Source of the DNA: Candidatus Iainarchaeum sp.
Lineage (GTDB): Archaea; Iainarchaeota; Iainarchaeia; Iainarchaeales; JAZDDZ01
Assembly: GCA_043809245.1 (NCBI GenBank)
Contig: JAZDDZ010000008.1
Coordinates: 1 to 64,000, forward strand
Direction of reading: 5' to 3'
DNA length: 64,000 nt
The notes under the pieces were generated by a model. The model worked only from the letters and a program-made list of their open reading frames with translations, searched no databases and had not been told where the DNA came from. The number at the start of each line of letters is the position of its first letter. Position 1 is the stretch's first letter. Position numbers and translations under genes: made by a program. Below, piece by piece: positions 2,800 to 43,822 of the stretch.

Positions 2800-3025
2800 G
2801 AATAGTGTATTAGGGGGTTAAATATTTTCCTTTTCCTTGTTTCTTGCCATTAAAAAGGGGCTTTTTTATACCACTACTATATACACTGGCTGCTTTACCT
2901 GGGCCTTAAAACTTTCTAATGATTGGTTCAGCGTATTTTCCACCTGCAATTAAGCGGGCAAAAAAATCAGCGTGCCTTTCAGAATCTTTTTTGAAATCAA
3001 TCAATGAAACCACCACCTGTTTTTG

Positions 3026-3976
3026 TTAAAGATTTAATTCTTTATATGTGTTTTTAAAAGAAGCCGATATTCCAATGGGTTTAACTTGCGCTAAGGCCCT
3101 CTCCCTTAAATCATTTAAGATTTTTATGTTCTCCTTTTTGTGCGTCATTGCCTTGATTGCCTCAAAGTTTTGAATGAAAAAAAATGGGAAGCCCTGGACA
3201 GCTTCACTAATAGTTGGGTAAACCTTTTTTTCTTCAAATATTTTTTTGGTTTCCTTTGGATCTACTTGTTTCCCAGGGTATTCTTTGATAACCCCATTTT
3301 CTAAATTAAAAGTTGAACCTTTAATTTTTTTTACTATATCCATAAAGGTTTTGTTTTCCCTAAACTCTTTCCGCATATGTAAATTCTGAACCCATTCCGA
3401 AAAATCCGTGGTTTTGAAATAAAGCTCAATAATTTTTTCTACAAACGCACTTTTTTTCTTATATTCTGGTTTCACCATATCCTGTAAACTTATTTTTTCA
3501 GGCGCATCAGGCAGATTTATTTTGTTATCAGAATAGTATCCATCCCTTTTGTTATCAGAATAGTATCCCTCCTTTTTTCTCACAAAGGATATTGTTATTG
3601 TTGGATGATCATCTTTCAATTCAGAATGGTATAGGCTCACAAAGCAGTTGAGGGTTAATTTTTGGAAATTAACTGAATAATATTTTTCTTTCAAATCTTT
3701 TGAATGGCCTGTTATGTAATCAGCTTTTTCAAGCAAGTAAACCCTTTCGGAAATAGTAGGCTGGCTTTTCCCCAAATGCTCTGCTAATTTTTTTTGGCTA
3801 TCAAAACCTTTTACTATTGAAAAGAGTGTTTCACCAAATTCCCTGCTAATCCTTATGCCTTTGTATTTTTTAAGAATCTTAATGGCCTTGGGATCCTCTC
3901 TAATTTTTTTAATGAGAAATTCATCCCGCATAAACTCTTTCATATACCCTTCTCTCCTTATTGATCTGTCATGCAT
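3026..3976 (-). CDS. Winged-HTH regulator (putative element repressor); start may be 3943
   Basis: SQKKLAEHLGKSQPTISERVYLLEKADYI HTH; divergent from the replication operon. Confidence 0.7.
   Translation of the reverse strand: MHDRSIRREGYMKEFMRDEFLIKKIREDPKAIKILKKYKGIRISREFGETLFSIVKGFDSQKKLAEHLGKSQPTISERVYLLEKADYITGHSKDLKEKYYSVNFQKLTLNCFVSLYHSELKDDHPTITISFVRKKEGYYSDNKRDGYYSDNKINLPDAPEKISLQDMVKPEYKKKSAFVEKIIELYFKTTDFSEWVQNLHMRKEFRENKTFMDIVKKIKGSTFNLENGVIKEYPGKQVDPKETKKIFEEKKVYPTISEAVQGFPFFFIQNFEAIKAMTHKKENIKILNDLRERALAQVKPIGISASFKNTYKELNL
3520..3568. repeat. 27-bp-period in-frame tandem duplication (GYYSDNK twice)
   Basis: TTTTGTTATCAGAATAGTATCC at 3520 and 3547. Confidence 0.9.
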
Positions 3977-4142
3977 CTATCTATTACTAAACACAATACA
4001 TTTTAAAAATATTGCCTGGCGCTTTAAACTGCAAATAGTTGCCTATTACTGCTTTAAAATGGCAATAAACCATTTATAGCTAATCGCTCTTAATTGGCTA
4101 TGAATGGATTTCTTTTTAATTATTTATTGCTGAAAGTAATAT

Positions 4143-4328
4143 ATGTCAGAGCTGAAACCGCAAACCTGTGCCAAATGCGGGCAAATATTAATGGATAAAG
4201 CCTATTTTGAGCAAATACACAACAAGCCATTTCTTTATGCCTTACAGCAACTTGAGCTCTGGCAATCGTTAAAAGAAGAGGGAAAAAAGCATGGAAAAGG
4301 ATCAAAACAAGGGCCTGAGCAAGATTGA
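4143..4328 (+). CDS. Small hypothetical protein with CxxC
   Basis: First ORF of the rightward operon; CAKCG motif. Confidence 0.55.
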   Translation: MSELKPQTCAKCGQILMDKAYFEQIHNKPFLYALQQLELWQSLKEEGKKHGKGSKQGPEQD

Positions 4329-6198
4329 GGCCTCTATTTTCAGGCAATACGAACCTATTCTGGCAAAAGATTGCGTTTATAACTGTTTAAAGGAAACCCT
4401 ACATAATGGCCAGGTAATCAAGGAAAACCTGTTTAATTGTTATGAGTGCTATAAGGGGAAGGGCCAGAATCGCATTATTCTGATAACCCAAATGCAGGAA
4501 AGCCTGCCCCTGGGAGAAATAGAGTTGTGTTTTGCCCCATTGAAAATAATGGAAACCCAGGCTGGAAAAGAATTTGAGCTCATAGAGGAATTCAAGCCAT
4601 ACATTGAGCTTTATGGATTAACAAAGATCAGCCCTAAAAACTTGATTGAAGGCATTAAAGAAGAGGCAGTAGAAAAAGAAATTTTCCTAACCCCTGAGAT
4701 GTTAAAGGAAAAAATCTGGGAGGGCCTGAAAGACATTGCCTGGGGCAACAAAGAAGGCATATATAGCAAACTATTCTACAAAAAAATCCCTCCAGTGGAT
4801 ATCAATGCGGTTTTAAGGTTTTCAAACAAAGAGGCAAATGAAAAAATTGATGCATTCATTGATGATAACTGCAACAAGGATCCTGTAATAAATTATTTAT
4901 TCAAGCATTCAGTTTTGTTTCCAAATATCAATGTGGTGAAACCCCATAGATATCAACCATTTAACCCTCATCAAATTTTGATTACCAATTCTGGAACCGC
5001 TAAAACAACCACTGCAGAAAAATTCGGAAGGGTATATGAGAACGCCTCAATCATTGGCCTGGTGGGATATGCGGATGCTCAAAAGATTTGCTATGGAACT
5101 CTTCATAACTCCTATCAGGATATTGCGCTTGATGAACTTGAGGCGGTCCAGGAATCGGATATTTACTCCAAGTTTTTGAAAATTTTGCAGGATGGAAAAA
5201 CCACTTCCGCAAAGGCAGGCAGAGAAATCCCATGTAGAAGCTGGAGCCCTCTTAGAATAATGAGCAACCCCGTGAGATTGAGAGCTCAAGAAAGCCTTTT
5301 TATAAACGATTATGAGCTTGTGCAAATTTTTGAGGATCTTATTAACTGCATTACCAAAAACCCAGAGGCCCTGGGCAATAGAATTCCCATAGTGCTTTTC
5401 AGCAAAAAAATAAAGGCATTGAAGAAAGGCGCTGCAGTGCATCCCCTTGAAGAAATTGAAAGGCTTCAGAAGTATGTGCAAACCTTAGGAGAGCTTGCGA
5501 AAACAAATTATTCCAGGCTATTCAATGAACAGAGAGTTGTTGAATGGTTGAGACAAGGTTATCCAGAGCAGTATGAGAAAGAGGTTAAGGCCTTAGCTGC
5601 AAGCGAAGAGGATGCAGGCTTCCAAGTGTTCAGGGATTTTCTAAATGGCTCAGTTGAAGGCTCTGGGGCCACACACTGCAGAGGTTTTGCCCTCAAGCAA
5701 GCCTGTGTGGATTCCATAATGGATTTAATTAACGGAAGGCACGATATAGGAAAACTACTCAAGGATGCGGATTTCCACTTCCAAAAAATCTTAGGGATAA
5801 ACCTGAAATCCTTTGAATCTATTGTGGAGATAACCCAAAAGCAAAACCTCATGGCGCAGTTAGTGGAGAGTAGATTCCATGCCCTGGCAAAGGAAGGCCA
5901 GATCCTGTGCAGTGTTTTAAAACAATTCCTGGCGAAAGAGCTCCCTGAATCAAGGGAAATCATTACTGATTCATTCCAGGCCCTTCTCTTGGAGAATGAG
6001 GCATTCAAAGGCACAGGAAGGAGCCTCCCCACCTATTGGAGCAGGCTTTTCAAGCAGAGGAAGAGGCTGAACCTGCAATTCATGGCCCTGGGCTTTGAGT
6101 TGGGCCAGAGGAAAACAAAGGTGGGAATGATCCAATTCGTTAAAATTCTGGATGAAGCACTGCTTAAGCTCCTAAAAACAGGGGAGGAAACGAAATGA
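4291..6198 (+). CDS. Divergent MCM-like AAA+ helicase
   Basis: Walker A NSGTAKT, ASIIGL, Walker B IALDE, pre-sensor hairpin TTSAKAG, sensor-1 IMSNP, candidate Arg finger ALGNRIP. Confidence 0.8.
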   Translation: MEKDQNKGLSKIEASIFRQYEPILAKDCVYNCLKETLHNGQVIKENLFNCYECYKGKGQNRIILITQMQESLPLGEIELCFAPLKIMETQAGKEFELIEEFKPYIELYGLTKISPKNLIEGIKEEAVEKEIFLTPEMLKEKIWEGLKDIAWGNKEGIYSKLFYKKIPPVDINAVLRFSNKEANEKIDAFIDDNCNKDPVINYLFKHSVLFPNINVVKPHRYQPFNPHQILITNSGTAKTTTAEKFGRVYENASIIGLVGYADAQKICYGTLHNSYQDIALDELEAVQESDIYSKFLKILQDGKTTSAKAGREIPCRSWSPLRIMSNPVRLRAQESLFINDYELVQIFEDLINCITKNPEALGNRIPIVLFSKKIKALKKGAAVHPLEEIERLQKYVQTLGELAKTNYSRLFNEQRVVEWLRQGYPEQYEKEVKALAASEEDAGFQVFRDFLNGSVEGSGATHCRGFALKQACVDSIMDLINGRHDIGKLLKDADFHFQKILGINLKSFESIVEITQKQNLMAQLVESRFHALAKEGQILCSVLKQFLAKELPESREIITDSFQALLLENEAFKGTGRSLPTYWSRLFKQRKRLNLQFMALGFELGQRKTKVGMIQFVKILDEALLKLLKTGEETK

Positions 6199-6290
6199 AG
6201 AAATTGGAGCCTATACTGGTTTTTTGGTTTGATCCTTTGGATGGCCCAAAGTTTACTGTGTTGTTTGATAAAAAGGAGGAAAAAAAATGA
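6195..6290 (+). CDS. 31-aa microprotein
   Basis: ATGA overlap with the helicase stop, GGAGG upstream; MKKLEPILVFWFDPLDGPKFTVLFDKKEEKK. Confidence 0.5.
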   Translation: MKKLEPILVFWFDPLDGPKFTVLFDKKEEKK

Positions 6291-6415
6291 ACCCCCCCAC
6301 CTTGCTTGGCAAAATGGCTAAAATGGCTATTATGGCTGGCGTTTTCCAGCTAAATTCAGTAGCCAAATTAGCCAAAACAGCCTTTTTGCCAGGGCAGGTA
6401 GGGGCTCTTTTTTTT
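6279..6415. repeat. Symmetric inverted array of GGC/GCC boxes, candidate replication origin
   Basis: GGC at 6308/6316/6325/6334 and GCC at 6362/6371/6380/6388 (spacing 8,9,9 mirrored as 9,9,8); flanking A- and T-tracts. Confidence 0.6.
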
Positions 6416-6443
6416 AAAAATCAACCATTGGAGGTGGTTTTGA

Positions 6444-6767
6444 ATGTCTTTAAAGAGAAATAGAGGGATAACTCAAGCGGATTATCTGGCGGCAGGATTT
6501 GATGAAACCGAGCCGACGGAGCCGACAGCAGCAGAGAAAGCGGATGGATTGCAGCAAGCCTTTGACAAGGCACAAGCGAAATGGCAGGACATACTGATTA
6601 TGGTGGGGAATGGTAATTGCTTGATGCAGTGCAATTTCACGCCGACAGATTTGAGAGCATTCATTGATGACATCAAATACATGGAGAAAATGGGGCAGGA
6701 TGCGATTGATGGAATCAAAGAAATGATTCAGCGAATAGAAAAGGAGGAACCGAATGAACGAAAATAG
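6444..6767 (+). CDS. Hypothetical protein
   Basis: GGAGGTGG RBS; operonic. Confidence 0.7.
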   Translation: MSLKRNRGITQADYLAAGFDETEPTEPTAAEKADGLQQAFDKAQAKWQDILIMVGNGNCLMQCNFTPTDLRAFIDDIKYMEKMGQDAIDGIKEMIQRIEKEEPNERK

Positions 6768-7056
6768 AACCGATCTGCCTTTTCTGGCAGCAAAATATGA
6801 TGCTATTGGTGTGCCATTCAAGCATTTGCTTGAAGTTGTAATGGGCAAAATTCCAGGCACAGGCTGGTATCCTATTCAAAAAAACAAGAAGGATGTTGGT
6901 TTGCTGTGTTTTGAACTTTCAAAAGACAAGGAAACTCTTTGGGTTAGTTTTCTTTGGCACGACTTGGAATGGGAAAAGCATGAATTGAAAGAAAAAAAAA
7001 GATTGCTTGAAAGACAACCACTGGAGGCGGTTTTAAATGCAAAAAAAACAAAATGA
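6754..7056 (+). CDS. Hypothetical protein
   Basis: GGAGG RBS; overlaps both neighbours. Confidence 0.65.
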   Translation: MNENRTDLPFLAAKYDAIGVPFKHLLEVVMGKIPGTGWYPIQKNKKDVGLLCFELSKDKETLWVSFLWHDLEWEKHELKEKKRLLERQPLEAVLNAKKTK

Positions 7057-7384
7057 AAAAAAGAATGAGAAAGAAATACGGATAGCAGCCATTGAATGGG
7101 TTAATGCAAAAATTGCAAGGCTAATGAATGAAATGGTTGCATTGGAGGAAGCCCACAGCAAAGCAAAAAAAACAGCGAGATCAATAAAGGATCTTAACTT
7201 TGTTCAGGCCCTTGTTAAGCAAAACCTTGAGCGTTGGGAGCGCCTTGATGAGGAACTATTAAACACCGAAATGGATTATGGAGAGGCAAGAGCTTTCATT
7301 TGTGCATTCCAGCCAGGCCAGGGAATTAATAAAGCCATTCTCGGAAATCCCCCGAAAGAATTGGAGGAAGATGAAGATGATTGA
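7037..7384 (+). CDS. Hypothetical coiled-coil protein
   Basis: GGAGG RBS; helical heptad pattern. Confidence 0.65.
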   Translation: MQKKQNEKKNEKEIRIAAIEWVNAKIARLMNEMVALEEAHSKAKKTARSIKDLNFVQALVKQNLERWERLDEELLNTEMDYGEARAFICAFQPGQGINKAILGNPPKELEEDEDD

Positions 7385-8438
7385 AAACAAGGGAAACCTA
7401 AACGAAGAGGCTATTAGGTTTTACTATAAACAATTACAGCACGAAGAGGAAACAGAAATAAGGCATGGCATAGAAAATAATTTTTCATCAGATTTCGTGC
7501 ACAGCGCAGATGCTTTTCTTTATGTTTGCCAGCGCTGGAATGGCATTCATAACATATACGCTGGCCTGAATGAAAGAAAACAGGGGGGCACAAAAAGCGA
7601 GCATGTTATAACCGCAGATAAATTCAGGCTTGATATTGAAAGAAAGGAAAGCAAACGAAAGGCAACAGAGGAAGAGATAGATAAAGCTGAAAAAGTTGCG
7701 GATAAAATCATGCTGTGGTTTAAAGAGCAGGGTTTTGATGAACCGCTTAAAGCCTTTACTGGAAATGGCTTTGCTTTGATCTGCTATCATAAGCCATTCA
7801 AAGAACTGAATCAACAAAAAAGAAACAGCATAGCAGAAAAATATAATTCCTTTTTTGAAATGGTAAAGCAAAAATTTGAAACAGAGGATATAAAGATTGA
7901 TAAAACACACGATCTGGCGAGAGTGGATAGGGTAATTGGAACCTGGAACCTTAAAGGGGAGCGCTTGAGTTTTTTCTGCAATGCCCAGGGTTTTGAAAGA
8001 AAGGATAACCTGAAACTGATTGAATTCTTTGAGGGTTTAAAGATTGAAAAGCCAGGAACAGCAAGGGGAAGCCAGGCAAAGGTTAAATTAACTGCCTGGG
8101 AGATTTTGCGGAAAAAACACCCTGATAATCAGGAGCGCTGCAGTTGTGTGCTGAAAATATTCAACAGGCAAAGGGCGAAAGGATGGGGTGTGAATGAGAT
8201 TTGCGAGTATATTGCAAAGAATTGTGTATGGGATGATTATGATCCTGTGCGAACAAGAACCATGATTGAGGATTATTTGAGCAGATATTTTGAGAATCCC
8301 AATCCTTTAACGCAAAAGAAGGCGTTCAGGCTCCGCTATGATTGCGAATGCGGAAGGGTTTATTTTCTGGCCCCTATTAGTGAACAGGTGGTTAATTGTT
8401 CTTGCGGAAAACTTAGGAGAGTTGTTGTTTATGGTTGA
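7377..8438 (+). CDS. AEP-superfamily primase-polymerase-like protein with C-terminal Zn ribbon
   Basis: Motif I-like RLDIE, motif II-like FTGNGF, motif III IDKTHDLARVDRVIGTWN; C-terminal CECG...CSCG; start placed after GGAGG. Confidence 0.75.
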   Translation: MIENKGNLNEEAIRFYYKQLQHEEETEIRHGIENNFSSDFVHSADAFLYVCQRWNGIHNIYAGLNERKQGGTKSEHVITADKFRLDIERKESKRKATEEEIDKAEKVADKIMLWFKEQGFDEPLKAFTGNGFALICYHKPFKELNQQKRNSIAEKYNSFFEMVKQKFETEDIKIDKTHDLARVDRVIGTWNLKGERLSFFCNAQGFERKDNLKLIEFFEGLKIEKPGTARGSQAKVKLTAWEILRKKHPDNQERCSCVLKIFNRQRAKGWGVNEICEYIAKNCVWDDYDPVRTRTMIEDYLSRYFENPNPLTQKKAFRLRYDCECGRVYFLAPISEQVVNCSCGKLRRVVVYG

Positions 8439-8578
8439 ATTGAATTGCCAAAAAAACGCAAATAATGGCGTTTTGCCCTATACCTTGCTATCCTTAAACA
8501 AAATCTTAACGCTTACATACAAGTTATTTAAATGCTCTTTTAACTGCCTGCTTAAACAAACGCCAGAGGGGTGTTCTA

Positions 8579-8890
8579 ATGAAAATTAGGCACAGGGCCT
8601 TTGATTGCCTCAATAAACCCAGGTATAACATCTTACTGGCTTTAAGGGATGTTTTGCTTGAAGTAAGGGAGTTATGCCAGGCCACAGGTCTGAGCTGGCA
8701 TAATTGTTATTATCATTTGGAGATCTTGCAAGAAAAAAAACTGGTTGAAAAGATTGCATCAAAAAAAGAGAACCTTTCAAGGAAAACATACAGGAAAGAA
8801 AGGCCAGTGAACAGGTTCAAATTAACACAGTTAGGCTCTGAGGCGCTTGAATATTTTCCTAACTCTAAATTAGGGGGAAAATATTTATGA
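8579..8890 (+). CDS. ArsR-like winged-HTH protein
   Basis: PRYNILLAL...VRELCQATGLSWHNCYYHLEILQEKKLV...FKLTQLG. Confidence 0.8.
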   Translation: MKIRHRAFDCLNKPRYNILLALRDVLLEVRELCQATGLSWHNCYYHLEILQEKKLVEKIASKKENLSRKTYRKERPVNRFKLTQLGSEALEYFPNSKLGGKYL

Positions 8891-9027
8891 ATATGGAATG
8901 CAGGGCAAGACTAAGGGCATCCAATGCTGCCCATCCCTCTTCCCTGCACATATTGGACAGCAAGTTATGGTTTGGCTTGCTGTTCCTATTCCTCCATAGG
9001 GGCGCAAGAATTGGATGTCTTGCGCCC
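8890..9027 (+). ncRNA. Putative structured RNA: three stem-loops with a predicted loop-loop pseudoknot
   Basis: Stems 8890-8910/8938-8954, 8957-8967/8973-8983 (with G-U pairs) and 9000-9009/9018-9027; loop ATTGGATG is complementary to CATCCAAT (8918-8925). Confidence 0.6.
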
Positions 9028-9056
9028 ATTTCCTCTTTTCAGGCAGTTGATCTCAA

Positions 9057-9233
9057 ATGAATTTGAAAAGAAACCTTTACAGGAAAGGAAATAGTTTTTT
9101 CACAGGAATCCCAATCCAGGCCCTGGGTAATTTGAACAAAGAAAAAAAATATTCTGTTCTCTGGGTTTTTGATCCTAAAAAAGATTGTTGGGAGATTCGT
9201 TTTGAAGAAAGAAATGAGGAGGGGAAAAAATGA
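9057..9233 (+). CDS. AbrB-like small DNA-binding protein (58 aa)
   Basis: MNLKRNLYRKGNSFFTGIP resembles a swapped-hairpin start; ATGA-coupled. Confidence 0.6.
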   Translation: MNLKRNLYRKGNSFFTGIPIQALGNLNKEKKYSVLWVFDPKKDCWEIRFEERNEEGKK

Positions 9234-9349
9234 AAGTTAAATTCACTTGCTGCTCTTGCGAGCAGCGAATAACAAAAGGTTCAGGCAAGCGCCTGATTGT
9301 ATGCAATTCTTGCCATGAAAAGCTAACAGAAAACTTGGCGGTGGTTTGA
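9230..9349 (+). CDS. 39-aa zinc-finger microprotein
   Basis: CCSC...CNSC; GGAGG RBS; ATGA overlap. Confidence 0.55.
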   Translation: MKVKFTCCSCEQRITKGSGKRLIVCNSCHEKLTENLAVV

Positions 9350-9459
9350 TGCAGCGGGAACGGGTTGCGCAGTGCGAAATGTGCCGAGAAAAACCAGTTA
9401 AAGTTTTTTTTGTGGGTTGCCTTTGGCTTTGTGAAACTTGTTTAAAGGAGGGAGAATAA
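9349..9459 (+). CDS. 36-aa zinc-finger microprotein
   Basis: CEMC...CETC; TGATG overlap. Confidence 0.55.
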   Translation: MQRERVAQCEMCREKPVKVFFVGCLWLCETCLKEGE

Positions 9460-9849
9460 ATGCCCACTGCATTTGAGCAAAGATTGAAAGACAAATCCAA
9501 AAGAATGATTTTGAACCTTGACGCTTCAAGCCAAGAAGAACTTTACTCGGAGATTGCGAAAATGGAGGAACACGGTTTCAAGTTATGGCGAGTTAAAGAA
9601 TATCAAACAGAGTTTTTTGGAGGTATTAAAGCGGTCTTAATTCGTGGAATGTCTGAAAAGGATGAAGACGCGTGCTTGTTTTGCGGAAAGGAAGTGTTGC
9701 AAAATGGGGTTTTTCTAACGCCTTTAAAACCCACTGGAGAGTCTACAAGGATTTGTTTTTCTTGCTTGGATGTTTTTAATTTTTTGCAGGCAAGGTTTTG
9801 GGAAAAGAAGAATAAAATTAAAAAACAAAAAAAGGAGGTGAAAAAATGA
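9460..9849 (+). CDS. Hypothetical protein with C4 zinc finger
   Basis: CLFC...CFSC (ClpX-type spacing). Confidence 0.7.
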   Translation: MPTAFEQRLKDKSKRMILNLDASSQEELYSEIAKMEEHGFKLWRVKEYQTEFFGGIKAVLIRGMSEKDEDACLFCGKEVLQNGVFLTPLKPTGESTRICFSCLDVFNFLQARFWEKKNKIKKQKKEVKK

Positions 9850-10013
9850 ATGATTTAAAATTAATGAACGAATACGCGCAAAAGCGGTTTGCGAAAGCCG
9901 AGAAAAACAAAAAGCGACCTTTAAGCGCTTTTGAAACGTGCCAAATGATTGAGATAATTGAAAACGAAATCAAGCACGGGTTTCATTTACCTAAAAAGGA
10001 GGAAAAAAAATGA
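9846..10013 (+). CDS. 55-aa microprotein
   Basis: GGAGGTG RBS; ATGA overlaps at both ends. Confidence 0.55.
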   Translation: MNDLKLMNEYAQKRFAKAEKNKKRPLSAFETCQMIEIIENEIKHGFHLPKKEEKK

Positions 10014-10924
10014 ACGAAGAAAAGCAAAGAACAGATGTAATGCCTTACTTGGTTGCACATTCGCCTTTTCTGGCGGATGTTTGGCGACAGGTTCACCGAA
10101 ACAAAGGCTCGCAAATAATTTTAGTGAATGGCCTGCCGAGAACTGGAAAATCCGAGCTTTGTTTGGTTTTTGCCCACGCATTAGACCCGAACTTTTCAGT
10201 GCAGAATAATGTTGCGTTCAACAAGCTGGAATTTTTGCAGTTAGTGCGAAAAAACAAATATGTTGGCGCGGTGAACATTTGGGAGGAAGCAGGGTTAATG
10301 GAATACGGTGCAAGTGCCAGAGAGTTTTGGAGTGCGGATAACAGGCGAATGAGCAGCTTGTTTCAGTCAATGGGTTTTCACCGCCAAATTTGCATTGTGA
10401 ACCTGCCTCAAAAAATAATGCTGGACAAGCACTTGAGGTCGCTGTGCCACTGGATTGTGGAAACAAAAAGCATTGACGTGCAAAGAGGAAAAGTGAAGTT
10501 TAAGGTTTTTCACATTCAGCCAAGCGACAAAATTTTTTACAAAAAATATATCAGGGTTTTTGAAGATGGTGGCGTGACAAAGATTATGTCTTTTGTTGCC
10601 CCAAGACCCCCACAGCATATTCTGGAAGAATACTGGGCGAGGGAAAAATTGTTCAAAGACATGGTTTCGGATAACTTGGAGAAGGAAATGCTGGAAGAGG
10701 AAAAAAAACCTAACGATAGCGAGACAAGGAAGCTGACCACGCAGAAGAGAAACGCTGCATTGGTTGAAGCGATTGCCAAAGAGCCTAAAGCGTTCAGCAA
10801 GCCAAAGAAAAACAAGTTGGAATTGAACGCTGACTTGATTGCAGGCACATTTGGAATTTCTGTGCCAACGGCAAGGGTAATTAAAGCGCTTTACACGCAA
10901 CAGCACGGCGAAGTCAAGATATAG
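10010..10924 (+). CDS. Zot/viral packaging-like P-loop ATPase with C-terminal HTH-like tail
   Basis: Walker A GLPRTGKS, Walker B NIWEEAG, IVNLPQKIMLDKHLR. Confidence 0.72.
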   Translation: MNEEKQRTDVMPYLVAHSPFLADVWRQVHRNKGSQIILVNGLPRTGKSELCLVFAHALDPNFSVQNNVAFNKLEFLQLVRKNKYVGAVNIWEEAGLMEYGASAREFWSADNRRMSSLFQSMGFHRQICIVNLPQKIMLDKHLRSLCHWIVETKSIDVQRGKVKFKVFHIQPSDKIFYKKYIRVFEDGGVTKIMSFVAPRPPQHILEEYWAREKLFKDMVSDNLEKEMLEEEKKPNDSETRKLTTQKRNAALVEAIAKEPKAFSKPKKNKLELNADLIAGTFGISVPTARVIKALYTQQHGEVKI

Positions 10925-11048
10925 GAATAAAAAAAAAGCAAATAACATTTGCCTTCCTATTAATGACTTGTATAGTGGTTTCGGCGTGGCGTTCTTTCCT
11001 TGACTTAAACATAAAACCTTTTTCTGCTTTTCGCAAGCATTTCTTTGT

Positions 11049-11801
11049 ATGGATTACTGCAAAAATTGCGAAACCCGCTTGTGCTGTAAAAACATAGCAT
11101 TGCCTGTAGAATTGAGCATATTTGATATTTACCGAATAGCCAAAGATAAAGAAATTAAGTTATCCGATTTGTTTTCTACGCAATGTGCTCTTATACCCGT
11201 TAAATCAATTCACCCCTATTTTGCAATATGGTTCAGTTTTGGGATACACTGTTCTTTTCTAACTGATACGGGGTGTGCTTGCCATAAAGTGAAGCCAGTA
11301 ACTTGCATGCAGTTTCCCGCTTCAATTATATTCCAAAGAACAATTGATGATTATTCTATGTATCCCTGTGAGAAATTTGTCTTGCCTGAACAAGACTCCC
11401 TTAATGATTTGAGTCAATTTCACAGGAAAGAAATGCGCAAACATTATGCGCTTGTTTTTAATAACAGGATTCCAATTCTGCCTGTTAAAAATCTGCCAAA
11501 AAAAGAACTGGCTGAAATACTTGCTAATGATTCTAAGATATCGGCTTTGAATATATCTCAAACTAAAAGAAATGAATTGGCATTAGAGTTTATGATTCCA
11601 TTAGCAAATAATCTTATGATGAAATCCGATTTGACTTATGAATTTCATTTTGAGGATGGTCGCTCTGAAGAAATTACTGTAAATTTATGGCAGCATAGTC
11701 TTGAACGAATAAAAGAAATTGAACAGAATAGAGGTTTCACACAGCAGGCTGAATTTTATTCAAGAAAATATTCTAAGATTAGAAAAAAATACATGATATA
11801 A
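11049..11801 (+). CDS. YkgJ-family cysteine-cluster (Zn/Fe-S) protein, cargo gene
   Basis: CKNC...CC, CSFL...CACH..KPVTCMQFP. Confidence 0.8.
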   Translation: MDYCKNCETRLCCKNIALPVELSIFDIYRIAKDKEIKLSDLFSTQCALIPVKSIHPYFAIWFSFGIHCSFLTDTGCACHKVKPVTCMQFPASIIFQRTIDDYSMYPCEKFVLPEQDSLNDLSQFHRKEMRKHYALVFNNRIPILPVKNLPKKELAEILANDSKISALNISQTKRNELALEFMIPLANNLMMKSDLTYEFHFEDGRSEEITVNLWQHSLERIKEIEQNRGFTQQAEFYSRKYSKIRKKYMI

Positions 11802-11986
11802 CACAAAAGATTAACAGCCCTTTGCACGGCGGGGGGGCAGTTTAAAACTTTTTCAAGATTGGCTCACAGGCTTACATTACCGCCTCGTTAATAGTATAGT
11901 GGCACACCCCCCTATTCTTTATATTTAATTTAAGTTAGAAATAGAGCCTGTTTTTTTGGCCTTTGCTTAACTGAAAGAGTTTATTG

Positions 11987-13423
11987 TTATTTTGCATCTA
12001 CTTTTTGCCTTAACTCTGAAATCTCTTGCCTCATTTGCTGCATTATTTCAACCACTGCCCTGTTATCAAGCTCTTCAATCTGTTTGCTCTTTCTATCCAG
12101 ATCTAATGCAGCCTGAATAGTTAGGGGAGTAGAACATTGTAAGCAAAATTTTTCACTTGGAGAGTTTTGCTTTCCGCAAATTTCGCAGGTTTTGGGTTTC
12201 AAAACATCTTCCTCTTCCTCTCCTTTTTCCAAGAGCCCTGCCTGTTTCAATATGGCTTTATCTAAATCCCTATGGCTCAAATGCACATACACTTTAACCA
12301 TATCTGAATCACTGCCCCATCCAGCGAAAAGCCTTAACTCAGATTCAGTTAAACTTTTGGCAAGCTCTGTTAATCTTGAATGCCTCATTAAGTGGGGCCA
12401 TATTGGTTTAGTTTTAAACCCTGCTTGCCTTGCAGCATTCTTCAGCAAGCGGTTTAAGTTGTTTACTCCAAGCCTGGCTTGTTCTTTGCTCCTTGTTGAA
12501 TCAGCAACCCAAAGCGGGGCATCAGGTTCATCTTTGAATGGGTGGATGGAAAGCCATTGGGCAATGTAAGGAATTGATTTGATTAACCTTATGGGCCTAT
12601 CGCCAGTTTTACCGCTTACAACAATCATATAGGAATACTTGTCTTTTTTCAGCGAACCCACATCTAAATCCAAAAACTCCGATGCCCTTGCAGCAGATTC
12701 GTAAAGGCAGGATATGATGGCCTTATTCCTAATGTTTTTTTCTTTATCAATCAAAGCAAGGATTTCTTTCGGATAATAAATATCTTTCGGGAGCTTTGAT
12801 CTATCCCTGTCAATTTTAATCCATTCAACAATTTCCCCTTTCTGCAGCCATTTGAAAAAACACTTTATCTGGGATTTGAAAGTGCTGATTGATTTTTTTG
12901 CATACCTTTGCTTTTCAATGGGGGCAAATTTATCAGGATCCTTTCCAATAAAAGTTAGTGTGTGCGGAACAGGTTTAGGCGCTGTGTGGCCTGGTGTTAA
13001 AGCGAAATCATCAGGGCATTCTTTTGCGATATTGTTCATCATGGTTCTTGCATAAAAACGAGAAATCTTAAAATGCTCTCTAACTTGGGGAGAAGTTATC
13101 TTTCCCTTTTTTGCAACCATTCTTTTAAGATCCAAAACCTTGCCATAGTTTTTTTTCCTCATTCGGCCTAACTCATTCACAAAGCCAATCAATTCTTCCT
13201 TACTCATTTTTTTGAATGGCTTGCTGAGGTAATGATCTAACTGGAGCATGGTTTTCAGGAAGTGGATCCTGGTTGAGGGAACCTTTCCATTAGTGCCTAT
13301 GCCTTGGGCCTCTCTTTCAGCATCATACTCTAAAATGAGTTTCTTGTTTTCCGCAGGGATGTGTGGGTTATCCTTAATTTCCTGTATTGTTCTGTTCAAA
13401 TAGCCTGTTTTATCGTCAGCCAT
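11987..13423 (-). CDS. int: Tyrosine recombinase/integrase with C-terminal Zn ribbon
   Basis: Catalytic residues: SAARASE (R), GKTG (K), HLMRH, GW, VYVH (Y); CEIC...CLQC; adjacent to att. Confidence 0.93.
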   Translation of the reverse strand: MADDKTGYLNRTIQEIKDNPHIPAENKKLILEYDAEREAQGIGTNGKVPSTRIHFLKTMLQLDHYLSKPFKKMSKEELIGFVNELGRMRKKNYGKVLDLKRMVAKKGKITSPQVREHFKISRFYARTMMNNIAKECPDDFALTPGHTAPKPVPHTLTFIGKDPDKFAPIEKQRYAKKSISTFKSQIKCFFKWLQKGEIVEWIKIDRDRSKLPKDIYYPKEILALIDKEKNIRNKAIISCLYESAARASEFLDLDVGSLKKDKYSYMIVVSGKTGDRPIRLIKSIPYIAQWLSIHPFKDEPDAPLWVADSTRSKEQARLGVNNLNRLLKNAARQAGFKTKPIWPHLMRHSRLTELAKSLTESELRLFAGWGSDSDMVKVYVHLSHRDLDKAILKQAGLLEKGEEEEDVLKPKTCEICGKQNSPSEKFCLQCSTPLTIQAALDLDRKSKQIEELDNRAVVEIMQQMRQEISELRQKVDAK

Positions 13424-13440
13424 ACCTATTAGGGTATGGC
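13419..13440. promoter_or_regulatory. Palindromic operator over the integrase start codon
   Basis: GCCATACC-N6-GGTATGGC; TATA-like TTTAAATA on the minus strand at 13447-13454. Confidence 0.55.
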
Positions 13441-13459
13441 AACAAGTATTTAAACCCTG

Positions 13460-14188
13460 CTATTTCACTATGCTAATGAATATTTCCCCGAACCAGTCGT
13501 CTTGCCATAGCGTGATTTTGCCTTTGTTGTGAAGGAACAGGCAGGGGATGAATGTGTCCACTATTTTGTAGGAGTTTGTTTCAGAGCCGTTTATTAGGCG
13601 GGAGAAAAGCACTAAGCCTTGGCTGTCCGCGTTTTCTTTGATTTTTTCAAAGACGACCTCCATTTTTTCGTCAATGTTTTCGGAAGCGAAAGGAATCTTG
13701 AATTCAGGCACTTCAATCGGCCTTTCCTTTAAGCGTTTCTGCTTTGTTTTTTCAAGCACGGCTTCAATGCTTTCAACAAGTTCATCCAATGAAATTCTGC
13801 CTTCCTTTATTTTTTTGATGTTCATTAATTCAGGCAATTCTGAGTCAAGCTGCCAAAGCTCCCTTTGCCTTGCCTCCTCTTGTTTCAGGAACTCGTCATC
13901 CTCATCCAAATCGCTTAAGCGCAGAACACGGCTCTTGAACTTCAATAGAATTGCGGATGCAAGGATTGCATTTGCAGGAAGCCTTAAATCAGTGTTTTCA
14001 AGCGCTGAGATTTTCTTGATGTATTTGTCCGCCAATTCAGCTATGTCAATGCCCCATGCATCCATTTTCTCTGATTTAACCAAGTCAAGCAGAATTGTTT
14101 TCCATGCAGGCTGGTCTATGAGGTCCACTAAGTCTATTTTTCCTTCGTGTGCCTGCACTTCAGCGTTAAAAGAAGCCTCTTCAGCCAT
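13460..14188 (-). CDS. scpA: Segregation and condensation protein ScpA (kleisin)
   Basis: MDAWGIDIAELADKY, AILLKFKS, LFLHNKGKITLWQDDWFGEI. Confidence 0.92.
   Translation of the reverse strand: MAEEASFNAEVQAHEGKIDLVDLIDQPAWKTILLDLVKSEKMDAWGIDIAELADKYIKKISALENTDLRLPANAILASAILLKFKSRVLRLSDLDEDDEFLKQEEARQRELWQLDSELPELMNIKKIKEGRISLDELVESIEAVLEKTKQKRLKERPIEVPEFKIPFASENIDEKMEVVFEKIKENADSQGLVLFSRLINGSETNSYKIVDTFIPCLFLHNKGKITLWQDDWFGEIFISIVK
13475..13492. repeat. att core, right copy, inside scpA
   Basis: Exact match to 2782-2799. Confidence 0.92.
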
Positions 14189-30335: not shown

Positions 30336-32810
30336 TTGGCTAAAGGCATTGAGGCTTATCTGAAAAAAACATCGGTTAAAGTGGACAGGGAAATCGCAAA
30401 AATTTTCCCGAAAAAAATCTCAGGCAAGTGGCTTGAATTCTCACTTGGCAAAGCCATTTACGCTTATGACGCTGAAACCGTCAGCAACTCAATTGCTTCC
30501 CCGATATGGGATTTATTGCGCCGCGGCGGAAAACGGTGGAGGCCGGCGCTTATGCTTTTATGCAATGAAGCACTGGGCGGAAGCGAAAAAAACGCCTTGC
30601 ATTTCACTGTTTTGCCCGAACTGGTGCACAACGGCTGCTTGTCCGAAGACACCGTAATTTGGATGGCTGACGGAACGCCTCGAAAGATTACGGATGCAAA
30701 GGAGGGGGAATTTGTTCTTTCCGTGGGAAGCGATTTCCGGATAACTGAAAGGAAGATTGAGAAATTCCACGATAATGGAGAAAAGCCAACGCTTAGAATT
30801 AAAACTGACCACAGGGAAATCATTGCGACAGGGGAGCACCCTGTTCTTGTCGTTTCAAAGAAACAGCCAGTGCGATATAAAATCACGAAAAGCGGAAAGG
30901 CGCTAATCCAACAAAAATTATTTGAGGCAGATTTGACTATTTCGGAATTCTGTGACAAGATCTCCAAGGAAATCAAAACAGACATGCATCCGAAGGCACT
31001 TAAGAATAGTTTTTACGGGTATTCAAACTGTTTGATTCCGTTACGTATTGCAGATTATGTCAGTGCGATGTTTTCCTTGGATAAGAAGGACCTGTTTAAT
31101 GAGACGCAATGCCAGTTTGATAAAGCGGAAATAATTTTTTCTTGGAAAAAAGCAAGCGAATTGCGCCAAGGGGACTTTGCAGTCATTGCGAAACAATCAT
31201 TCTTCGGGAGTCCCAAGGTGCCAGAATTGGGTGCCTTTGAAAAAAACTGCAAAGACAGGTTCCGAATGCCAAAAGAGTTTTCGCCTGAGCTCGCCCAGCT
31301 CTGCGGCTTTTTAGTTGGAGATGGGTGCATCCAGCTGAACTATAATGGGGGAAAAGTTGATTTTTGCGTGCCGAAAAATGGCGCAGGAAGAAAAGAGTAT
31401 GAGTCACTGATAGAAAAAGTGTTTGGCGCAAAGCCTTATCTGGGCGAAGGCTCTGTAACTATGTGTTCAAAAGCGGTTGCAGAATTGTTTATTGGTTTGG
31501 GCTTGAAAGCGAAATGTACCGAAAAGAGCCTCCCAAATTGGGTTTATTCTTTGCCTCTAGAATATAAGAGGGCGTTCGTGAAAGGTTATATAGACGCTGA
31601 TGGCACTGTTACAAAAACAGGCATAACGCGGTTTGGCTGTGCAAATAGGTTGCTAATGGAGGAATTAAAGTTTTTGCTTGATGGCATGGGCTTTCTTACT
31701 ACAAATATCTGCGAAAAAAGGGTTAGCAACGAGCATTTTGGAGAAAGAGCAAAGAAAAAAGAGACAATTCTTTACTGCTTTGAAATGGGCCAACGAGAAA
31801 AAGTATTGCAAGAAATTGGTTCGGAAATCGCATTTTACAAAACAAGGCTGGGAATGCAGGCTCAAAGAATGGTGCAACTGAGATTCAGAGATGCAATCCC
31901 TTCCCTGCCTGAATCGTTCGACCGCGAACATCTCGGATTTGAAAAAATAAGAAAAATAGAAAACGCTGGAACAAGGAAAACCTTTGACTTGCAAATAGAA
32001 GGAACGCACAACTATGTTTCCAATGGAATTATAACGCACAATACGATAATGGCTGATGACATTGAGGACTGCAGCGAACTGCGGAGAGGCAAGCCGTGCA
32101 CGCACCTTGTTTTCGGGGAAGACATTGCAATCAATGCGTCCAACACGCTTTACTTTCTTCCGTTGATTTTGCTGTACCGCAACACGCAAAAGCTTGACGA
32201 AAAAACGCGCAGGATGATTTACGATGTTTACTCTGAGGAAATGCTGCGCGTTTCAATCGGGCAGGGAATGGACATTTACTGGCATCGCGGCAAGAAAAAA
32301 AATGTAACGGAAAAACAATACCTGCAAATGTGCTCTTATAAGACCGGGGTGCTTGCGCGTTTTGCGGCAAAACTTGGCGCGATTCTCGCGGGCGGAACGC
32401 AAAAACAGATTGAGGCACTGGGAAAATTCGGTGAAACAATCGGCGTCGCCTTCCAGATTCAGGACGATGTCTTGAACCTGAGCAGCAAAAAATTTGCGAA
32501 AGGAAAAGGCCTGGGAGAAGACATCAACGAGGGAAAACGCTCTCTTATCATAATCAAAACGCTTGAACGCGCCACTGCTGCGGAAAAAAAGGAATTGCTG
32601 AAAATCCTTGACTCCAAAAAGACGTCAAAAAAGCAAATCAACCGCGCGCTTTCAATCATCAAAAAATACGGTGCGCTGGATTACGCGCGGAAAAAAGCGC
32701 AAAAAATCGTTAAGGAAAGCTGGAAGCGCGCTGAAAAAGTGCTGCCGGAATCGCACGCGAAAAAACTGCTGAAAGAATTCGCTGACTTCCTTGTGGAGAG
32801 GGAGATTTAA
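30336..32810 (+). CDS. Polyprenyl (GGPP-type) diphosphate synthase containing an intein
   Basis: GGKRWRP, ELVHNG|TIMADDIED (first Asp-rich motif), KT, FQIQDD. Confidence 0.92.
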   Translation: MAKGIEAYLKKTSVKVDREIAKIFPKKISGKWLEFSLGKAIYAYDAETVSNSIASPIWDLLRRGGKRWRPALMLLCNEALGGSEKNALHFTVLPELVHNGCLSEDTVIWMADGTPRKITDAKEGEFVLSVGSDFRITERKIEKFHDNGEKPTLRIKTDHREIIATGEHPVLVVSKKQPVRYKITKSGKALIQQKLFEADLTISEFCDKISKEIKTDMHPKALKNSFYGYSNCLIPLRIADYVSAMFSLDKKDLFNETQCQFDKAEIIFSWKKASELRQGDFAVIAKQSFFGSPKVPELGAFEKNCKDRFRMPKEFSPELAQLCGFLVGDGCIQLNYNGGKVDFCVPKNGAGRKEYESLIEKVFGAKPYLGEGSVTMCSKAVAELFIGLGLKAKCTEKSLPNWVYSLPLEYKRAFVKGYIDADGTVTKTGITRFGCANRLLMEELKFLLDGMGFLTTNICEKRVSNEHFGERAKKKETILYCFEMGQREKVLQEIGSEIAFYKTRLGMQAQRMVQLRFRDAIPSLPESFDREHLGFEKIRKIENAGTRKTFDLQIEGTHNYVSNGIITHNTIMADDIEDCSELRRGKPCTHLVFGEDIAINASNTLYFLPLILLYRNTQKLDEKTRRMIYDVYSEEMLRVSIGQGMDIYWHRGKKKNVTEKQYLQMCSYKTGVLARFAAKLGAILAGGTQKQIEALGKFGETIGVAFQIQDDVLNLSSKKFAKGKGLGEDINEGKRSLIIIKTLERATAAEKKELLKILDSKKTSKKQINRALSIIKKYGALDYARKKAQKIVKESWKRAEKVLPESHAKKLLKEFADFLVEREI
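30636..32042 (+). mobile_element. Intein (469 aa) with LAGLIDADG endonuclease
   Basis: Starts CLSEDT; block B ATGEHP; GFLVGDG and GYIDADG; ends THN with +1 Thr. Confidence 0.93.
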
Positions 32811-39737: not shown

Positions 39738-40732
39738 GCATGCAGCCTCAAGCGCATTGCATCCTTTGGCTTTGCTTCCTCTTCCCTTATCGTCCTGCCA
39801 GTGTAATGCAAAAAGACGTCATCCAAAGAAGGCTTTCTTAAATTCACTGACTCCACTGCAACGCCGTTTTTTTCCATCAACTTCAAAAGCTGCGGAATCT
39901 TTTCCTCGCCTTTTTCAACCCTGACATCAAGCAGGCCGTCATGCGATTTAACCGCCTTAACCCATTTAAGGCTCGATAGGCTGTCAATGCATGCCTTGCC
40001 TGCGCTGCACTTGATTGAAATAATGTCACCGCCCAAAGAAGCCTTAAGGTTTTCCGCTGAATCCATTGCGATTATTTTCCCAGAATCAATTATGGCTATT
40101 TTATCGCAGACGCTATCGGCCTCATCCATGTAATGAGTGGTGAGAATAAGCGTGATTTTTTCTTTTTTGTTCAATTCTTTTATGTACTGCCAGATGTTTG
40201 CCCTTGTCTGCGGGTCCAGGCCGATTGTTGGCTCGTCCAAGAAAAGGATTTTTGGCCAGTGAAGCAGGCCCCTTGCAATTTCAAGCCTTCTTTTCATTCC
40301 GCCTGAAAAAGTCTTTACCTCGGATTTAATGTTTTTCTCCAAACCAACCAATTTCAAAAGCTCTTCAATTCGTTTCCTTCTTTCCTTTTTTTCAACAGAG
40401 TACATTGCGGCATGCATATCCATGTTTTCATAAGCTGTAAGTTCGTCGTCTAAGCTCGGGTCCTGGAAAACAATGCCAATGCTTTCCCTTACCTTGCCTG
40501 ACTGCCTTGCAATGTCAAAGCCATTCACTTTCGCGCTTCCGCTCGAGGGCTTTCGCATAGTGACAAGCATTGAAATCAGCGTGGTTTTTCCCGCGCCATT
40601 GGGGCCCAAAAGCCCGAAGATTGTGCCTTCCTCTATTGAAAGGGAAACGGAATCAACAGCCTTGAGGCCGCCGTAAGATTTGCTTAAATTATCTATTTCA
40701 ATCGCGTTCATGCGCAAAACCGCCTGTCTCAC
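39719..40732 (-). CDS. ABC exporter ATP-binding protein (DrrA-like)
   Basis: GPNGAGKT, FSGGMKRR, FLDEPT. Confidence 0.93.
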   Translation of the reverse strand: MRQAVLRMNAIEIDNLSKSYGGLKAVDSVSLSIEEGTIFGLLGPNGAGKTTLISMLVTMRKPSSGSAKVNGFDIARQSGKVRESIGIVFQDPSLDDELTAYENMDMHAAMYSVEKKERRKRIEELLKLVGLEKNIKSEVKTFSGGMKRRLEIARGLLHWPKILFLDEPTIGLDPQTRANIWQYIKELNKKEKITLILTTHYMDEADSVCDKIAIIDSGKIIAMDSAENLKASLGGDIISIKCSAGKACIDSLSSLKWVKAVKSHDGLLDVRVEKGEEKIPQLLKLMEKNGVAVESVNLRKPSLDDVFLHYTGRTIREEEAKPKDAMRLRLHAWGRRK

Positions 40733-40965
40733 TTGCCTTTTTCAACAAGCCCTAAAAGCTTTGAGGCAAATTTGTGTATTGCATCTGCTTTCACAATCAT
40801 CAGGCCGTGGCCGCCTTTTCCGAAGACAAGCATTTTTTCCCCTGCCTTTATCTTGAAGTGCTTCCTTGCCTCGGTTGGAATGACAATCTGGCCGCGCTCC
40901 CCGACCTTAACGGTGCCGTAAAACTTTTTGTGATGGTGTTCGTGCATAACAAAGCGCTGTGCCAA
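40729..40965 (-). CDS. AbrB-family regulator
   Basis: VKVGERGQIVIP. Confidence 0.88.
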   Translation of the reverse strand: MAQRFVMHEHHHKKFYGTVKVGERGQIVIPTEARKHFKIKAGEKMLVFGKGGHGLMIVKADAIHKFASKLLGLVEKGK

Positions 40966-41009
40966 AACATTTAAATATGAATTGTATGAAAAGAATGAAT
41001 TGTGGAAGA

Positions 41010-41921: not shown

Positions 41922-41977
41922 AGCAAAGAAGTCTTTTTCAGAAACAAATATTAAGTGTTTGCCTGCAGTTATTTTTT

Positions 41978-42469: not shown

Positions 42470-42471
42470 TT

Positions 42472-43221: not shown

Positions 43222-43223
43222 CC

Positions 43224-43550: not shown

Positions 43551-43561
43551 TTAAAAATCAC

Positions 43562-43822
43562 CTATAGGTAACTTTCCCACAAGCCTTCAGGTTCATTTTC
43601 CCATATTTTATTCAAGGTTTTAATGGATGCCCTGAGCCAAACTTTCATTTCAGGATCGTTAAGAGACTCAATTACTGCTTTTTGTTTTTTAATGACCAAT
43701 TCATTTCCGTTCTCAAAAACAACCAGGGTTTCGCCTTCCTTTAGTTCAAGGTCTTTCCTAAATTCTTGGGGTATAACAAACTGCCCTCTAGAACCCAATT
43801 GCACAGTTTTCAGCTTGTTCAT
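43562..43822 (-). CDS. AbrB/MazE antitoxin
   Basis: LGSRGQFVIPQEFRKDL. Confidence 0.85.
   Translation of the reverse strand: MNKLKTVQLGSRGQFVIPQEFRKDLELKEGETLVVFENGNELVIKKQKAVIESLNDPEMKVWLRASIKTLNKIWENEPEGLWESYL

Follow-up and report, generated by a model that had tools for sequence, protein, structure and literature searches.

A stretch of 64,000 nt of DNA from Candidatus Iainarchaeum sp. (NCBI GenBank assembly GCA_043809245.1, contig JAZDDZ010000008.1, positions 1 to 64,000; hereafter the window) contains an element of 10.7 kb that is integrated into the 3' end of the chromosomal gene scpA. The element has its own replication module, no recognised capsid gene and an ATPase whose sequence places it with those of spindle-shaped archaeal viruses. 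We read it as an integrated plasmid-virus hybrid, most likely a plasmid-derived satellite of a spindle-shaped virus, and assign this reading a probability of roughly 0.5. The backbone would then be an integrative plasmid-type replicon, and the added part a block of genes around the spindle-virus ATPase. The two strongest arguments for a satellite are that the ATPase is constant among elements of this kind while their replication proteins vary, and that a replicon of the same type exists without the ATPase.

The borders of the element are marked by an exact direct repeat of 18 nt (AATGAATATTTCCCCGAA; 100% identity), the left copy of which, attL, is located at 2782-2799 and the right copy, attR, at 13475-13492, within the last codons of scpA (copy spacing 10693). 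This is the only exact long repeat that brackets the element, and by our own arithmetic the chance expectation for such a pair in 20 kb is about 0.003. The target gene scpA (13460-14188, - strand; Pfam SMC_ScpA, 2.4e-11) now ends in FGEIFISIVK*, the last residues of which (SIVK*) come from the element, while the displaced original 3' end is found at the other border, where in-frame translation onward from the left repeat copy gives FGEIFISLVSGETR* (2755-2799, - strand). Judged from the sequence, the repeat and the displaced tail are what is usually left when an element inserts site-specifically into the 3' end of a gene and provides it with a substitute tail. Since the repeats and the displaced scpA tail mark the borders, the element covers ~2800-13474. 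A preliminary description of this DNA had proposed that an element without capsid genes but with replication genes of its own is integrated here within definite boundaries, which is supported by the repeats, the gene set and the scans reported here, but the extent that it gave, 4143-13423, was too short.

The gene for a tyrosine integrase of 478 aa (11987-13423, - strand) starts 52 nt from the right repeat. The protein has an N-terminal extension and a C-terminal zinc ribbon, and it matched the Pfam family Phage_integrase (PF00589) with an E-value of 9.9e-13 (48.7 bits versus a cut-off of 27.1) and phrog_1 with 2.1e-16; a match to XerA_Arch (6.8e-20) was below the cut-off. As for the surroundings of the insertion, scpB (351-869) and scpA are 12.6 kb apart, with the element, a TraB-family gene and a PIN-domain gene between them, and without the element, scpA and the convergent PIN-domain gene would have their ends about 30 nt apart.

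Between the borders, the + strand carries a long run of tightly packed open reading frames (ORFs) that begins at 4143. The gene content was as previously described, with the ORF run, a helicase, a primase-like protein, a winged-helix protein, an ATPase and the integrase all in place. The gene that links the element to viruses is located at 10010-10924 (+ strand) and codes for a P-loop ATPase of 304 aa (Walker A GLPRTGKS, Walker B WEEAG), for which a word-index search retrieved 25 relatives. It matched phrog_5484, annotated as 'DnaA-like replication initiation protein', over nearly its full length (6.5e-5), and in a tblastn search of 50,697 virus records it yielded one clear match, to the equivalent gene of Haloferax LSV-48N (E 9e-11; next record E 0.07), described as a lemon-shaped virus. 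Comparison of the family profile with B251 of the Sulfolobus spindle-shaped virus SSV1 using hhalign gave a probability of 70% (E 4e-5, 189 columns).

The ATPase had been called Zot-like, which our comparisons do not bear out. The predicted structure (pLDDT 86) gave a flat list of folds in the PDB with Z values of 8-9.8, headed by phi8 P4 (9.8), RecA (9.6) and STIV2 B204 (9.5) and also including FlaH, VirB4 and HerA, whereas the Zot structure 2r2a was placed at rank 24 (Z 8.5). The best viral fold matches were uncharacterised proteins, among them ORF286 of the Acidianus two-tailed virus (TM-score 0.52-0.54), as compared to 0.30-0.35 for models of inovirus Zot proteins, and none of the 25 family members matched Pfam Zot (PF05707) at E ≤ 0.1. 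Taken by its sequence, the protein is the signature ATPase of spindle-shaped archaeal viruses, also called the B251 or 'DnaA-like' family, and its likeness to Zot is confined to the level of the fold. The protein has a conserved C-terminal helical part and two upstream partners that are kept along with it.

We searched for the ATPase in 196 genomes of the host's order, all of which are 0.5-1.5 Mb in size, and found it in 13 of them, the host genome (G000) included, at E ≤ 1e-5, and in 11 at E < 1e-20. In metagenome contigs, 16 ATPase loci were confirmed, whereas a pattern scan of a collection of genome contigs and one of viral contigs did not find the family. The contexts of the gene fell into a virus-like group, a group of small satellite-like elements and a third group of two loci (L121 and L123) that were assigned to neither. 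Virus-like stretches were present in three genomes of the order (L025 on contig C3 of G020, L026, and L120 on contig C10 of G114). In these, and in the metagenome contigs L003 and L007, the ATPase gene is accompanied by conserved upstream genes for membrane proteins. L005, L007, L025 and L120 encode a short tyrosine recombinase of BLAST cluster 3 (181-195 aa in the latter three), and L007, L025 and L120 also encode two-helix hydrophobic proteins of 63-86 aa and proteins of 1027-1293 aa with a signal peptide and a C-terminal anchor (cluster 2).

On this gene content we regard L007, L025 and L120 as candidate spindle-shaped viruses of the host's order, and the content fits that of the nanohaloarchaeal spindle-shaped viruses as outlined in bioRxiv 10.1101/2025.02.15.638363. 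The virus-like contigs share only the ATPase with the element in the window. By eye, the second helix of the two-helix proteins, with the pattern L[IV]PL, resembles that of SSV1 VP1 and VP3; tested as relatives of VP3, these proteins reached a probability of only 15.7% in hhalign.

The second group comprises small elements from five other genomes of the order (L122, L124, L125, L126 and L024), in which the ATPase occurs with regulators and with a full-length integrase of BLAST cluster 1, to which the window's integrase also belongs. Their large replication-type proteins differ, the large anchored protein is missing, and L125 has a primase-like protein. In all, the ATPase family accompanies at least six large replication-type proteins, or pairs of proteins: 635+386 aa in the window, 675 aa in a second element on contig C4 of the host genome (see below), and 828, 520, 537+309, and 469 or 285+196 aa elsewhere. 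The reverse situation was observed in genome G153, where a 12.7-kb contig (L130) encodes a cluster-1-type integrase, a divergently oriented gene for a winged-helix protein of 346 aa and an MCM-like helicase, while no match to the ATPase was detected in this 86%-complete genome. Because the G153 replicon occurs without it, the ATPase is not a required part of the MCM-like replicon.

In the phylogeny of the family, the ATPase of the window falls among those of virus-like metagenome contigs. In a quick maximum-likelihood tree of 42 ATPases, the copies from the window and from contig C4 grouped with P0003 (99), within a clade of 11 rows that includes L005 (96% in the Shimodaira-Hasegawa-like approximate likelihood ratio test) and that is placed beside the clade of L003 and L007. 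Since the other satellite-like elements lie elsewhere in the tree, the label 'satellite' needs at least two to three changes on it, although long branches make the deep nodes unsafe.

These distributions bear on the likeliest of the alternatives, that the element is a plain integrative plasmid without any helper, inherited with the chromosome and spread rarely by non-viral means, in which the ATPase acts in replication, as an initiator or helicase loader, or in partition. Several facts suit this explanation: the remaining genes (integrase, regulators, helicase, primase) are the set of a replicon, the PHROG matched by the ATPase is annotated as a replication initiator, the ATPase gene ends the replication operon both here and in L122 and L124, and helper-type genes were not found in the host genome. 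We nevertheless consider it rather unlikely. The association of the ATPase with at least six different replication-type proteins is hard to square with the role of a dedicated loader, the gene is missing from a relative of the MCM-like replicon, and in the virus-like contigs the gene lies amid those for membrane proteins and not amid replication genes. The literature likewise places the ATPase in a morphogenetic module, according to the account in bioRxiv 10.1101/2025.02.15.638363.

A search of the element against the host genome with blastn gave a single match, to the second, smaller element mentioned above, which is located at a tRNA-Cys gene (contig C4, ~40100-49150; L023, 2301-11351). Its far border is tentative, as it is set by an 11-nt match to the 3' end of the tRNA gene about 9 kb downstream (E 0.36). 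This element encodes an integrase that is 39% identical to that of the window element, a winged-helix protein, a zinc-ribbon ORF and the unrelated P-loop protein of 675 aa, and it keeps a block of four genes. In the window, this block consists of the genes for a Cys-rich protein of 129 aa (9460-9849, + strand; 46% identity to the counterpart on C4), a protein of 55 aa directly upstream of the ATPase (9846-10013, + strand; 65%), the ATPase itself (95%) and a YkgJ-type protein of 250 aa with a CxxCxxCC cluster (11049-11801, + strand; 46%). The assignment of the last protein is based on a match to PF03692 just below the cut-off (3.5e-4, 21.6 bits versus 23) and on Atlas feature hits, 30 of 30 of which were in CxxCxxCC clusters. 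It had been taken for a cargo gene, but its place next to the ATPase in both elements makes it part of the conserved block.

The segment with the ATPase gene is 88% identical at the DNA level between the two elements, whereas the other shared proteins are 39-65% identical and alignment at the DNA level is elsewhere limited to a stretch of 119 nt at the 3' end of the YkgJ gene. Such a high identity, in a segment beyond which little else can be aligned, suggests that the ATPase segment was recently exchanged between these elements. The copy on C4 is broken by one internal TAA stop codon.

We also looked for coat genes. None of the ORFs of the run matched a structural family in scans against Pfam and PHROGs, and no hydrophobic segment was present in any sense-strand ORF of at least 30 aa, all 16 ORFs with such a segment being antisense to a longer ORF. 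The element contains no homologue of the structural-type proteins of L007 and L025 and no large protein of the receptor-binding type. The earlier statement that no capsid gene can be recognised thus holds in the Pfam, PHROG and hydrophobic-segment scans. The 129-aa protein was compared with SSV1 A153/A154 and with the proteins of 144-208 aa encoded upstream of the ATPase in the virus-like contigs, to see whether it might be their counterpart, but no similarity was found.

Such scans could still miss a virus that is complete but very small and of an unrecognised type if its coat protein were one of the unassigned small ORFs, of which there are about seven (55-129 aa) without a family; among archaeal viruses, genome sizes of 5-10 kb and very small coat proteins with a helical fold do occur. 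Since there is no transmembrane-type segment on the sense strand, spindle-shaped, pleomorphic and other membrane virions are argued against; the lack of a large receptor-binding-type protein and the likeness of several of the small ORFs to zinc ribbons or winged helices also speak against this explanation, which we consider highly improbable.

A spindle-shaped provirus from which the structural genes have been lost since its integration would also be capsid-less. Such decay would account for the occurrence of structural-type genes in contigs whose ATPases are homologous at 36-40% identity, and the stop codon in the ATPase of the sister element on C4 is in its favour. However, the att copies in the window are exact, the integrase gene and all ORFs of the operon are open and tightly packed, and no remnants of other proteins from the virus-like contigs were found in the window. 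Moreover, the MCM-like helicase was matched in the window's element only, among the contexts examined, and the primase-like domain in the window and the satellite-like L125 and in no virus-like contig, while the virus-like contigs use a short recombinase that falls in another cluster (3 versus 1). The preliminary description had named homologous elements with structural modules as a sign of decay; homologues of the ATPase are indeed present in virus-like contigs, but nothing except the ATPase is shared. Because capsid-less, integrase-bearing relatives of the same layout recur in five other genomes, simple decay is argued against, and we regard a decayed provirus as improbable.

Replication of the element would depend on two proteins, the larger of which (635 aa; 4291-6198, + strand) was identified as a helicase from its predicted structure. 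At E ≤ 0.1 it matched no Pfam family save for a chance match to DUF1759, and no PHROG or NCBIfam family was matched; word-index searches with this or with the 386-aa protein described below returned the query itself only. An exhaustive HMMER search of 1.84 billion representative sequences yielded 331 relatives at E ≤ 1e-3, 236 at ≤ 1e-10 and 45 at ≤ 1e-30. When nine of the long relatives were scanned, seven had no Pfam family, one had Toprim and PriCT_1, and one had a weak match to Gins51_C. Among the 196 genomes of the order, the family was present in three, G000 included.

The AlphaFold2 model of the helicase, inferred from an alignment of 60 sequences, had a pLDDT of 89.5 and a pTM of 0.88 and starts with a beta domain, which is followed by an AAA+ core and, at the C terminus, by helices and a winged helix. 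In a Foldseek search against the PDB, the matches listed were subunits of the minichromosome maintenance (MCM) complex throughout (best E 1.3e-8), with global TM-scores of merely 0.24-0.36 because the domains are differently oriented. The VIA fold search placed MCM5 first (3ja8_5; Z 17.7, 295 aligned residues, root-mean-square deviation 4.1), followed by an archaeal MCM (8q67_A; Z 17.3, model residues 24-508), BrxL (17.0) and MCM8/9 (16.7); ranks 1-12 were occupied by MCM-type entries and BrxL, and the next class was RavA (12.3), after which came ComM (11.2) and Cch (10.4). K238, N326 and R364 were invariant and E282 nearly so in 60 sequences, and D281 and E282 were invariant in 12; from the motifs we read these residues as the Walker A lysine (K238), the Walker B pair (D281/E282), the sensor-1 asparagine (N326) and the arginine finger (R364). 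At the sequence level there was no match to the MCM profile PF00493, the helicase profile retrieved Mcm3 from the PDB sequences at E 1.2, and the PDB sequence searches with single proteins and profiles gave noise only. We therefore read the protein, on the strength of the model, as a divergent and unnamed MCM-like AAA+ helicase outside Pfam MCM, and the previous assignment as an MCM-like helicase holds by structure (AlphaFold2 model, Foldseek, Z 17.7).

The second replication protein is encoded by an ORF of 386 aa (7278-8438, + strand; the public gene call starts at 7371 and gives 355 aa). No Pfam, PHROG, NCBIfam or PDB-chain match was obtained, but the helicase family has long members (854-1065 aa) whose N-terminal ~320 residues are homologues of this protein. 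When it was compared with 176 proteins, 10 such members were matched by phmmer (P0029, 4.4e-55) and 16 after four rounds of jackhmmer. Since it corresponds to their N-terminal domain, the primase and helicase genes of the window are one fused polypeptide in these relatives. The family consensus contains the motifs DxD, SGxG and D..R..RVxGTxNxK, and the corresponding stretches of the protein in the window are DIE, TGNGFA (Ala replacing His) and D..RVDRVIGTWNLK.

The profile of the family aligned with the N-terminal domain of a DnaB_C-fused Bacteroides phage protein annotated as a DNA polymerase (98.8% probability, E 1.2e-16), in which the motifs are DID, SGNGFH and D...R..YGT. Leads in the same direction came from the ESM Atlas, with feature similarities of 0.92-0.93 to phage clusters that contain DNA_primase_S or PriCT_1 in a minority of their proteins, and with TM-scores of 0.56-0.65 to the N-terminal parts of phage primase-helicases. 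No relation to the prim-pol domain of pRN1 ORF904 was detectable in hhalign (0.8% probability). The 386-aa protein is thus probably a primase of the archaeo-eukaryotic type (AEP-like): the primase proposed in the preliminary description is plausible from the homology to the fused proteins and from the motifs, although no known AEP profile was matched.

Upstream of the operon and in the opposite orientation, the element encodes a winged-helix protein of 316 aa (3026-3976, - strand), a candidate regulator or repressor with matches to HTH_24 (6.6e-4) and to a Csa3-type HTH (1.8e-5), both below the cut-off. A divergent repressor had been noted before; this gene is the only regulator transcribed divergently, but it lies outside the extent then given to the element, and the ORF at 4143 reads in the direction of the operon. 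The intervening segment (3977-4142) is a putative divergent control region, rich in A and T, in which TATA-like runs and repeats of the motif TTGCCT...GCTTTAAA were recognised by eye only. The first ORF of the operon codes for a CxxC protein of 61 aa (4143-4328, + strand) without a Pfam or PHROG match. Between the helicase and the primase there are four small overlapping ORFs of 58, 107, 100 and 115 aa (6287-7384, + strand), with no Pfam match at E ≤ 0.1 and weak PHROG noise. Downstream of the primase follows the gene for a 103-aa winged-helix regulator of the ArsR/SmtB type (8579-8890, + strand), which matched HTH_5 (6.1e-5, 23.3 bits versus a cut-off of 22) and HTH_20 (1e-5).

Next, at 9057-9459 (+ strand), come an ORF of 58 aa and two tiny ORFs of ~39 and ~36 aa that by eye resemble zinc ribbons (CxxC...CxxC). 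These two ORFs, with two CxxC pairs apiece, fill what seems to be a gap of 227 bp in the operon (9231-9459). Together with the others, they bring the number of small Cys-rich proteins of the element to at least four. Zinc-ribbon-like or winged-helix-like sequences are seen in several of the small ORFs, which suggests that these are regulators. An identical stretch of 24 nt (TAAAAAGGAGGAAAAAAAATGAAC) was observed at 6269-6292 and 9992-10015, ahead of two different ORFs of the operon; it consists of a strong GGAGG ribosome-binding site and a start codon, and similar copies are located ahead of two further ORFs.

If the element is a satellite of a spindle-shaped virus, its life cycle may be pictured as follows. 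The integrase would recombine two identical 18-bp cores, one of the element and one of the scpA 3' end, and the element would give ScpA its substitute tail. The 316-aa winged-helix protein and the internal ArsR-type regulator would restrain the long rightward operon. After excision, a circle of 10.7 kb could replicate by its own MCM-like helicase and AEP-like primase, the B251-family ATPase would connect the DNA of the element with virion assembly by a spindle-shaped helper virus infecting the same cell, and the element would be packaged in the coat of that helper and thereby spread.

Several observations weigh against this scenario, the first two most heavily. The helper-dependent lifestyle is the best-fitting reading, as the preliminary description had it, but a helper was not found in the host genome: apart from the ATPase, 29 proteins from L007 and L025 had no specific counterpart in this 91.8%-complete assembly, where two surface-type proteins of L025 gave weak repeat-domain matches on contigs C7 and C43. 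The B251 family was first named for its likeness to DnaA and could act in replication rather than in packaging. About seven small ORFs (55-129 aa) are without an assigned family or fold, and one of them may be a cryptic structural protein. In the element we detected nothing like SSV1 A153/A154 or like the proteins whose genes directly precede that of the ATPase in the virus-like contigs. In the primase-like protein, the motif II His of the phage homologue is replaced by Ala, and no Pfam or PDB primase profile was matched. Finally, the TAA codon in the ATPase gene on C4 means that decay may be under way in one element at least.

A more general proposal, which we put forward tentatively and with less confidence than the reading of the single element, is that integrative plasmids with at least six different replication proteins in the host's order each carry a B251-family ATPase and that, as the tree implies, the gene was captured more than once from spindle-shaped viruses. 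If this is true, the ATPase and its small Cys-rich partners may suffice as a 'ticket' for packaging into the spindle coat of a helper, which would give a function to a viral hallmark protein unexplained since 1992, and DPANN-type archaea would host a widespread layer of chromosome-resident satellites. The locus itself represents a design of plasmid plus virus ATPase, integrated in the chromosome, in another lineage of small-genome archaea, and it offers a defined and clonable test case for the role of the B251-family ATPase. It also provides evidence for movement of the ATPase between replicons (88% identity at the DNA level versus 39-65% protein identity) and, as a side result, an unnamed family of MCM-like helicases (331 relatives), in which fusion to a primase-like domain is frequent.

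The host genome is 1.48 Mb in size in 55 contigs, of which the window represents contig C8, with an estimated contamination of 0.89% and an archaeal small-subunit rRNA score of 1417.9 bits. Outside the element, the window contains ordinary chromosomal genes, such as those for adenosylhomocysteinase, the glycine-cleavage P subunits, NifS/NifU and formate-tetrahydrofolate ligase. A simple script detected no CRISPR array in the host genome. Two of the host genes in the window have intein-like features: a gene at 30336-32810 for an IdsA-like prenyl diphosphate synthase, with the N- and C-terminal splicing regions of an intein, and a gene at 53026-54555 for a NifU/IscU-type scaffold protein, with intein-like matches in the middle of the protein.

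Among known systems, the phage satellite P4 and the phage-inducible chromosomal islands (PICIs) had been named as parallels. The parallel with these and with the related SaPIs is valid as a concept, since an integrase, a control region, an own primase or helicase, the lack of capsid genes and a dependence on helpers, which is proposed here, would be common to all. No component is specifically related, the replication proteins of SaPIs being distant fold matches only (8tch, Z 8.0; 7ola, Z 7.0), and the link to packaging would here be the spindle-virus ATPase and neither a small terminase subunit nor a change of capsid size. The helicase has its fold, the Walker A and Walker B motifs, a sensor-1-type Asn and an Arg in common with MCM, BrxL and Cch of SCCmec, with no match to Pfam MCM.

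The precise counterparts are pSSVx, pSSVi and the elements named SRCEs, and because these are known, the earlier suggestion of a possibly new family was overstated. In pSSVi, an integrative satellite of SSV1 and SSV2, integration splits the SSV-type integrase gene, and no B251 homologue is known from it. Like pSSVi, the element in the window is integrative and capsid-less, and by analogy it may be associated with spindle-shaped viruses, as is known for pSSVi; unlike pSSVi, it has an intact integrase gene beside the att site and contains the ATPase. pSSVx is a non-integrating plasmid of ~5.7 kb with a pRN-type replicon. It resembles the element in being small and capsid-less and in combining a plasmid-type replication module with a homologue of the B251 ATPase, but the element is 10.7 kb in size and integrated, has an MCM-like helicase and a separate primase, and contains no detectable relative of A153/A154. 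pSSVx, from Saccharolobus islandicus, is a satellite plasmid-virus hybrid of the fusellovirus SSV2; in the account given in PMC9608457, it carries homologues of B251 and A154 that it shares with its helper.

Our literature search for elements of this kind in DPANN archaea retrieved a 2025 preprint alone (bioRxiv 10.1101/2025.02.15.638363), according to which pSSVx and pSSVi were the only two archaeal satellites described before the SRCEs. The preprint outlines SRCEs as free circles of 2.7-9.0 kb from hypersaline metagenomes, in haloarchaea and nanohaloarchaea, that combine the AAA+ ATPase of spindle-shaped viruses, with or without a coat protein, with a plasmid Rep or an AEP primase-helicase, and it proposes that they are satellites of convergent origins; on our ATPase tree, too, the satellite label calls for two to three changes at the least. 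The spindle-virus ATPase, the plasmid replication proteins and the DPANN hosts are common to SRCEs and the element in the window. Compared with SRCEs as they are described there, the element is integrated, has a full-length integrase and belongs to another archaeal order, and it is further set apart by the split of primase and helicase into two genes and by the conserved block with the YkgJ-type and Cys-rich proteins.

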